Position numbers and translations under genes: made by a program
Notes under the pieces: generated by a model
What the model was told of the DNA's origin: nothing
Seen by the model: the letters and a program-made list of their open reading frames with translations, nothing else
Database searches by the model: none
Part shown: piece by piece, positions 1,760 to 2,211 of the stretch
How positions within the stretch are numbered: the stretch's first letter is position 1
Layout of the letters: each line of letters opens with the position of its first letter
DNA from: a virus
Lineage: Duplodnaviria; Heunggongvirae; Uroviricota; Caudoviricetes
Length of the DNA stretch: 7,494 bases
IMG/VR virus record: IMGVR_UViG_2534681674_000036
Span: 1 to 7,494 of that record
Direction: 5' to 3' (one strand)

Positions 1760-2050
1760 ATGAAAACAATGAAGCTAAACATCGACCTCGGCAAATACGT
1801 TATTACCGGAACCAAACACGACCTGATTCTTAGTGAAAGAGGAATTATCAAAGAAGGTGAGAATGCAGGGAAAGAAACACTAAGTCGTATCGGTTATTAC
1901 AGCAAGTTTGAGCATCTGGTTAAAGAGTTATGCAACCGTGAAATTCTGTTATCTCAGGCGCAGACGTTACAGGATATTCAGCAGCATATCGAGACTGTAT
2001 GTGTGTCACTTAGCATGGCTATTGACCAGTTCGTGGAGAGTAAATCATGA
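1760..2050 (+). CDS. Hypothetical phage protein (96 aa)
   Basis: ATG at 1760 preceded by GAGG at 1748-1751. The track's longer ORF (1607-2050) overlaps the upstream gene in another frame and lacks a ribosome-binding site. The stop TGA 2048-2050 overlaps the next ATG. Confidence 0.6.
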
Positions 2051-2211
2051 GGGGACTTGCATACAATCCCGGCATTCTTCCGGCAGAAATGATTATTCGC
2101 CAACGCGTAAAGCCAATGCCATCGAGAGAGGAATTGCTTAAGAGAAATTCTTTTCCATCAGTGAATCAAAACAAATATCTGAATGCGATGTGGCGGAGTG
2201 GGAAGAAATGA
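2047..2211 (+). CDS. Small hypothetical protein (54 aa), not in the ORF track
   Basis: ATG 2047-2049 overlaps the upstream stop as ATGA, and its stop TGA 2209-2211 overlaps ATG 2208 of the next gene as ATGA. It fills an otherwise non-coding gap in a tightly packed operon. No homology is recognised. Confidence 0.35.

Follow-up and report, generated by a model that had tools for sequence, protein, structure and literature searches.

A DUF2737 family gene joined to its neighbours by four-base overlaps in the early operon of a lambda-like prophage

Results

Identification of a small protein-coding gene

The open reading frame (ORF) of 54 codons plus stop at positions 2047–2211 (+ strand) of the window, the whole 7,494-nucleotide stretch of Caudoviricetes record IMGVR_UViG_2534681674_000036 analysed here, is almost certainly a true gene that encodes a DUF2737 family protein, with HK97 gp38, HK620 hkaI and Sf6 gp23 as named homologues. 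Its product matched PF10930 (DUF2737) with an E value of 2.6e-31 and a score of 107.7 bits, against a curated gathering threshold of 25 bits, residues 1–52 being aligned on profile positions 1–52 of 53, and matched phrog_1117 with an E value of 4e-38. When related loci were drawn from viral and genome collections, the DUF2737 frame was uninterrupted in all 88 of them; loss of the frame in close relatives was the finding that the earlier note had named as counting against its proposal of a real small protein, and that proposal is borne out. Across 54 distinct DNA versions of the gene, variable sites numbered 7, 11 and 27 at the first, second and third codon positions, respectively, and mean pN/pS was 0.106. 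On comparison of these sequences, homology and selection together are the decisive evidence for a gene. The length of the ORF is weak evidence, since 2.8% of shuffles of codons 2–54 remained open, the remaining five frames across the ORF contained only 1–5 stops each and many spurious ORFs of 50–100 aa are present in the window ORF list. Although such spurious ORFs and open shuffles would be in keeping with a chance open frame within a non-coding spacer between two genes, that reading is refuted, to a practically negligible probability, by the Pfam match, the intact frames in all relatives, the bias of substitutions towards third positions and the existence of 692 homologous clusters in several phage lineages. 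No family match was obtained for an alternative-frame ORF at 1908–2141 (+) or for an antisense ORF of 101 aa at 2138–2443 (-). By coordinate arithmetic, the antisense ORF shares its third codon positions with the gene starting at 2208, the usual signature of a shadow ORF.

The gene is already known. It is annotated by PGAP as DUF2737 and has been published as HK97 gp38, HK620 hkaI and Sf6 gp23. In the 100%-identical chromosome NZ_CP027587.1 a RefSeq CDS (WP_001214456.1, ‘DUF2737 family protein’) lies at exactly 2047–2211, and the flanking genes end at 2050 and begin at 2208. The ORF had been described as unannotated, which is correct for the length-filtered gene track supplied at the time but not for public records, where a CDS has the same coordinates. 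The otherwise 100%-identical NZ_CP027587.1 sequence (L001 1–1163) carries an IS3-family element that splits the 3'-5' exonuclease gene; the window copy of that gene is intact.

Genomic context

The window represents the leftward early operon (pL, ‘exo-xis’-type accessory) of a lambda-like prophage integrated beside ybhC. The genes run on the + strand in the order ssb (373–879), 3'-5' exonuclease (888–1436), anti-RecBCD gene abc2 (1453–1749; PF11043 E 4.7e-61, RefSeq annotation), DUF5405 family gene (1760–2050; PF17399 E 3.3e-5, RefSeq CDS), DUF2737, a 166-aa EaE/gp37-like gene (2208–2708; phrog_614 among its PHROG matches, RefSeq WP_000812199.1), then Lar, ead/Ea22-like, DUF551 and ASCH-domain genes, xis (4810–5028) and int (5006–6076), after which the host gene ybhC follows. 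As ybhC comes after xis and int (window 4810–7494), the prophage occupies the classical lambda attachment site, and its Int and Xis sequences look lambda-like. Both abc2 and Lar are encoded less than 700 bases from the DUF2737 ORF. As annotated by RefSeq in the identical sequence, the Lar gene (2705–2938) and the ead/Ea22-like gene (2844–3521) overlap by approximately 95 bases in different frames, which is unusually long for an operon otherwise built with 4-base overlaps, and a wrong start may have been called for one of them.

The DUF2737 gene lies within the early/accessory array of Enterobacterales phages and prophages, in the pL operon between abc2/DUF5405 and the EaE-like gene with xis, int and ybhC downstream, and the same early/accessory context was found in HK97, HK620, Sf6 and SE1. 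This architecture is ordinary and typical of tightly packed phage early operons. The HK620 hkaI protein is 100% identical to the window protein; HK97 gp38, Sf6 gp23 and WP_001214456.1 belong to the same family, the last being the same protein. These named homologues agree with the window gene in length, in a full-length profile match, in a pL position after abc2 with or without DUF5405 and in sharing an ATGA with the next gene. There is no substantive difference; the window has the less common arrangement with a DUF5405 gene upstream.

Distribution of the DUF2737 family

Approximately a quarter (1368 of 5426) of complete E. coli genomes carried the 165-base gene, at no more than four matching places each, and it is also present in HK022, ST160 and many Stx1a- and Stx2a-converting phages. 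Clustering at 90% identity gave 692 clusters for the family, every source-given name being ‘DUF2737’, and 60 clusters were found at 50% identity among 1.84 billion proteins; judged from these collections the family is small and narrow. Its members are stand-alone proteins of about 50–60 aa, mostly 53–60, and the window copy has 54 aa and no other domain. Longer entries correspond to start-site extensions or fusions represented by 1–4 sequences each. One (P0122) is an in-frame fusion of DUF2737 to an Sf6 gp22-like protein, whilst three others (P0121, P0123 and P0124) have N-terminal extensions running through the out-of-frame 3' end of abc2, and all four are probably indel variants or gene-calling artefacts. 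A 382-aa entry with six matched stretches (P0156) was rejected as a domain fusion, being an unrelated repeat protein. On a contig labelled Taishania pollutisoli (L089 2501–2590) and in an Armatimonadota MAG (L090 2501–2599), the C-terminal core of DUF2737 had matches of 72% and 53% identity, respectively; these lie outside the usual enterobacterial range and may be phage contigs or contamination.

Homologues are also present in virulent phages of the Guernseyvirinae, where they constitute PHROG 4684 (Jerseyvirus SETP7 gp64 and Kagunavirus SZH-1 URG18146). These proteins share with window DUF2737 the core TPFPTREEL[LM]KRNSF.GPDKNKYLNRMW, a similar size (51–52 aa) and a basic tail, and their genes, set in an array of small genes, overlap each neighbour by 4 nt. 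They differ in that the phages are virulent siphoviruses, the N-terminal third is unrelated, the genes on either side are different and there is no abc2 or recombination module nearby. All of their neighbours fall in PHROGs of unknown function and so provided no guilt-by-association clue.

Overlaps with the flanking genes

The ORF begins and ends in an ATGA exactly as the earlier note had described. At 2047–2050 (+) the sequence, the ORF list and RefSeq all place the DUF5405 gene stop (TGA 2048–2050) over the DUF2737 start (ATG 2047–2049), and at 2208–2211 (+) the DUF2737 stop (TGA 2209–2211) overlaps the start of the next gene (ATG 2208–2210). A Shine-Dalgarno-like GGAG can be read at 2035–2038 (+), 8 nt 5' of ATG 2047 and within the 3' end of the DUF5405 gene, and is kept in the four loci with this DUF5405–DUF2737 junction type. 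A second GGAG at 2195–2198 (+) is situated 9 nt 5' of ATG 2208, within the DUF2737 coding sequence.

The two overlaps differed in their conservation. The downstream ATGA was present in 85 of 88 close loci and the junction gcggagtgggaagaaATGA was kept, nearly invariant, in most of 90 loci. Six divergent members, amongst them the virulent Jerseyvirus and Kagunavirus homologues, end in ...AAATGA or ...GGAATGA right on the start of unrelated downstream genes. The downstream overlap is, across the sequences compared, a family-wide trait. The upstream overlap with the DUF5405 stop was found in only 4 of 89 sampled loci; in the other 85, a 10-nt spacer (...TGAggaatttaccATGA) separates abc2 from DUF2737, and the TGA within the start ATGA of these abc2-adjacent loci ends no ORF or gene. 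Amongst complete E. coli genomes the DUF5405–DUF2737 junction was present in 314 and the junction of abc2, 10-nt spacer and DUF2737 in 968. The upstream ATGA overlap also occurs in Sf6 and in the divergent locus L097 but is absent from HK97/HK620-type loci, and an ATGA at the start is partly forced because the second codon is Arg AGG. Coupling at both ends had been put forward as a sign of a real gene, with conservation of both overlaps in related prophages named as a check. The downstream overlap is conserved, whilst the upstream one is confined to loci that carry the optional DUF5405 gene.

In the window, an abc2-proximal junction like that of the abc2–DUF2737 loci leads into DUF5405, and the last codon and stop of DUF5405 overlap the DUF2737 start. 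DUF5405 therefore behaves as an optional cassette, either present or absent between abc2 and DUF2737 and bounded exactly by two ATGA motifs. The window DUF5405 protein is 95% identical to Sf6 gp24 and 68% identical to its counterpart in L097, where DUF2737 is 63% identical and the 4-nt overlap is as in the window; the DUF5405–DUF2737 pairing is probably old. The abc2 slot of L097 holds an unrelated 95-aa gene, and Abc2 was rejected as an obligate partner of DUF2737 on the grounds that this unrelated gene takes its place in divergent relatives.

The DUF5405 start itself is ambiguous (window 1747–1771). ATG 1760 lies 10 nt past the abc2 stop behind GAGGA and is used in the Sf6 gp24 annotation, and its junction with abc2 is the same one that serves DUF2737 in HK97-type phages. 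ATG 1769 is the start chosen by RefSeq, and the L097 DUF5405 homologue begins at the equivalent position.

Both junctions combine an overlapping stop/start ATGA with a ribosome-binding-site-like GGAG within the upstream gene, as in coupled pairs. Folding of the junction RNAs did not exceed that of shuffles (z 0.39 and -1.17), and neither RNA showed a structure by which the ribosome-binding site would be concealed. As each gene has its own GGAG and the junctions are unstructured, translational coupling is possible but not required. No Rfam matches were obtained in the window, and around the ORF a terminator scan was negative for the + strand. The HK620 GenBank record places a ‘terminator tL3’ inside hkaI (L091 1594–1606, corresponding to window ~2140–2152); the equivalent window sequence (AAGAGAAATTCTT) could form a stem of at most 4 bp.

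Start of the downstream gene

Several lines support ATG 2208 as the start of the downstream gene, as had been proposed from the overlap. This start is the one used by RefSeq and has a GGAG 9 nt upstream. Of 90 relatives with the junction ATG, 13 lack the alternative start GTG 2190, and the homologue in divergent L097 opens with the ATG of its ATGA and has no N-terminal extension. Relatives of the downstream protein include HK97 gp37, HK620 hkaH and ‘EaE’. Its N-terminus is conserved (MKQM[ST]...), whilst total length in relatives ranges from 92 to 301 aa and the C-terminal parts differ, and phrog_583 matches residues 3–43 only. A mosaic recombination boundary therefore apparently lies inside the 2208–2708 gene.

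Features of the DUF2737 protein

An alignment of 25 DUF2737 sequences, extending down to 39% identity, consisted of a variable N-terminal third, a conserved core (PMP[ST]REEL[LM][KA]RNSF[PG]SVN.N[KR][YH]L) and a basic tail. The window protein contains a core that fits P.P[ST]R[ED]EL[LM].RNSF..[VP][ND].N[KR][YH]L, and residues R33, S35 and F36 were invariant in the alignment. With a net charge of +8 and a pI of 11.0 the window protein is strongly basic, and all 25 diverse members are basic and hydrophilic (net charge +1 to +9, pI 8.0–11.0, GRAVY -0.7 to -1.5). No conserved Cys/His or hydrophobic segment was found in the family.

AlphaFold2 models generated from shallow and diverse alignments had pLDDT values of 64 and 65 and pTM values of 0.22 and 0.26, and the only recurring helices were at residues 27–33 and 43–50. 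The weak predicted fold would fit a protein that folds on a partner, and the small size of the family, rather than disorder, could account for the low confidence. Searching the PDB by Foldseek with the better model produced no match at E values up to 10, a PDB sequence search with the single protein gave none, and matches obtained with the family profile were at chance level. At E values up to 10, none of the other Pfam families matched two or more of the 25 members. When DUF2737, its SETP7 homologue gp64, DUF5405 and the downstream protein were compared with the PADLOC-DB defence models, none matched at E values up to 0.01. A ribbon-helix-helix fold (Arc/Mnt/CopG) was not supported, as a by-eye resemblance to Arc was accompanied by no such Pfam match in any of the 25 members at E values up to 10 and by none in the PDB profile search, and the predicted first helix has 7 residues (27–33) where 12 or more are required.

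Discussion

From the anatomy of the operon, DUF2737 would be transcribed with its neighbours as one early message and translated from its own GGAG site. A ribosome ending the DUF5405 gene would stop one base into the DUF2737 start codon, and one ending DUF2737 would stop on the ATGA that opens the next gene, so that termination-reinitiation could tie the outputs of DUF5405, DUF2737 and the next gene together. Taken together, the DUF2737 identity and this proposed expression from the early operon are very likely to be correct.

What the protein does is a matter for more tentative proposals. The papers found on DUF2737, hkaI, PF10930 and phrog_1117 contain only annotation and neighbourhood mentions, in one main text and one supplementary table, and none of the papers found gives a function. 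The peptide was absent from the text and supplements of accessory-gene screen papers that mention Abc2, where DUF2737 was listed once, as a bystander with ‘no known function’, and it was not one of the accessory genes encountered in the screen supplements searched. With 54 residues that are strongly basic and hydrophilic, and with no enzyme-like features, the protein would most plausibly act by binding. A possible role, which we advance tentatively, is that of an accessory factor which, early in infection, binds a conserved component of the enterobacterial host, either in host takeover or in counter-defence; this role is suggested by its size and charge, the conserved linear core, the weak intrinsic fold and the company of Abc2 and Lar in the operon. 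The 23-residue core with its predicted helices at 27–33 and 43–50 would dock onto a host protein or nucleic acid in early lytic growth, an interaction that the variable N-terminal third and basic tail would modulate. The occurrence of homologues in small early-gene arrays of virulent phages argues for a role in lytic growth rather than in control of lysogeny.

The known counter-defence genes abc2 and Lar are amongst the neighbours of DUF2737, and the products Abc2 and Lar/Ral of P22-type operons are, like DUF2737, early, short and non-enzymatic and are thought to bind host machinery. They have no homology to DUF2737, and the analogy is one of position and physico-chemical character only. The adjacency may reflect no more than shared mosaic ancestry, given that an unrelated gene replaces abc2 in divergent relatives. 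A comparison can also be made with the exo-xis genes of lambda and Stx phages (orf60a, orf61, orf63, ea22 and ea8.5), which are described as small, early and non-essential in the laboratory, with functions that are largely unknown (e.g. PMC3824215, PMC8614690). These genes occupy the pL slot that DUF2737 also holds, flanked by the recombination genes and by xis, and have no sequence relationship to it. Reported effects of exo-xis genes on the choice between lysogeny and lysis are not transferable to DUF2737 because DUF2737 also occurs in virulent phages, and a modelling paper on the exo-xis region makes no mention of abc2, P22, HK97 or Sf6.

After binding of a host component, the next-ranked reading is that DUF2737 is a small nucleic-acid-binding factor, driven by its charge to phage or host DNA or RNA such as recombination intermediates or transcripts. 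The net charge of +8 and pI of 11.0, a basic character kept in all 25 diverse members, and the position of the gene in temperate phages, always just downstream of a recombination module (Erf, RecT, Sak4/AAA_24 or exonuclease), are consistent with such a factor. However, no recognizable DNA- or RNA-binding domain was detected among the 25 members at Pfam E values up to 10 and the virulent-phage homologues are not beside recombination genes, and we regard this role as unlikely.

A different kind of explanation is that the ORF is mainly a cis-acting translational relay delivering ribosomes to the downstream ATGA, the peptide itself being unimportant. The ending ...AAG AAA TGA with its ATGA overlap is indeed the most constant feature of the gene, seen in 85 of 88 close loci and in the six divergent members. 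The peptide is nevertheless under purifying selection (pN/pS 0.11), and its 23-residue core is common to temperate and virulent phages at 40–50% overall identity. The downstream genes are unrelated between lineages. In the window a GGAG of its own precedes the downstream gene by 9 nt, and the RNA at the junction is unstructured. Since the peptide sequence is selected and the downstream partners differ, a relay is improbable.

Mimicry of a segment of the P22 tail accessory protein gp4, by which DUF2737 would act on a virion-assembly partner such as the portal, was considered on account of a gap-free profile alignment to P22 gp4 residues ~105–148 (PDB 5gai_K and 4v4k_k) that pairs P.PSR, six residues and NSFP..NE..Y. 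The E values of this alignment (0.46–0.93) are at chance level, DUF2737 members do not match PF11650, and the motif is lost in the Sf6 gp4 orthologue (PF11650 E 3e-74), which reads VVPSMRRRGDFPVGQGNKYDVF. DUF2737 is, moreover, present in HK97-like and Guernseyvirinae siphoviruses, in which we know of no gp4-type protein. Mimicry was rejected as highly improbable, with the motif not kept in the Sf6 orthologue, and the resemblance is probably due to chance.

A further reading can be put forward, and more doubtfully. DUF2737 might represent an uncharacterized class of very small basic effector, common to temperate lambda/P22-like phages and virulent Guernseyvirinae, that binds one conserved enterobacterial target through its RNSF core and so neutralizes a defence or redirects a DNA-metabolism factor. 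It might also act jointly with the co-diverging DUF5405 protein, as the pair is kept at 63% and 68% identity with the same overlap in a divergent lineage. The sequence gives no pointer to an unusual mechanism for DUF2737.

In the present case the filling of a gap by a frame with a 4-base overlap on either side proved a valid cue to a gene, and it was the length cut-off of the supplied gene track that hid a genuine and widely annotated one. DUF2737 is a very frequent prophage gene, and any phenotype found for it would be new information.
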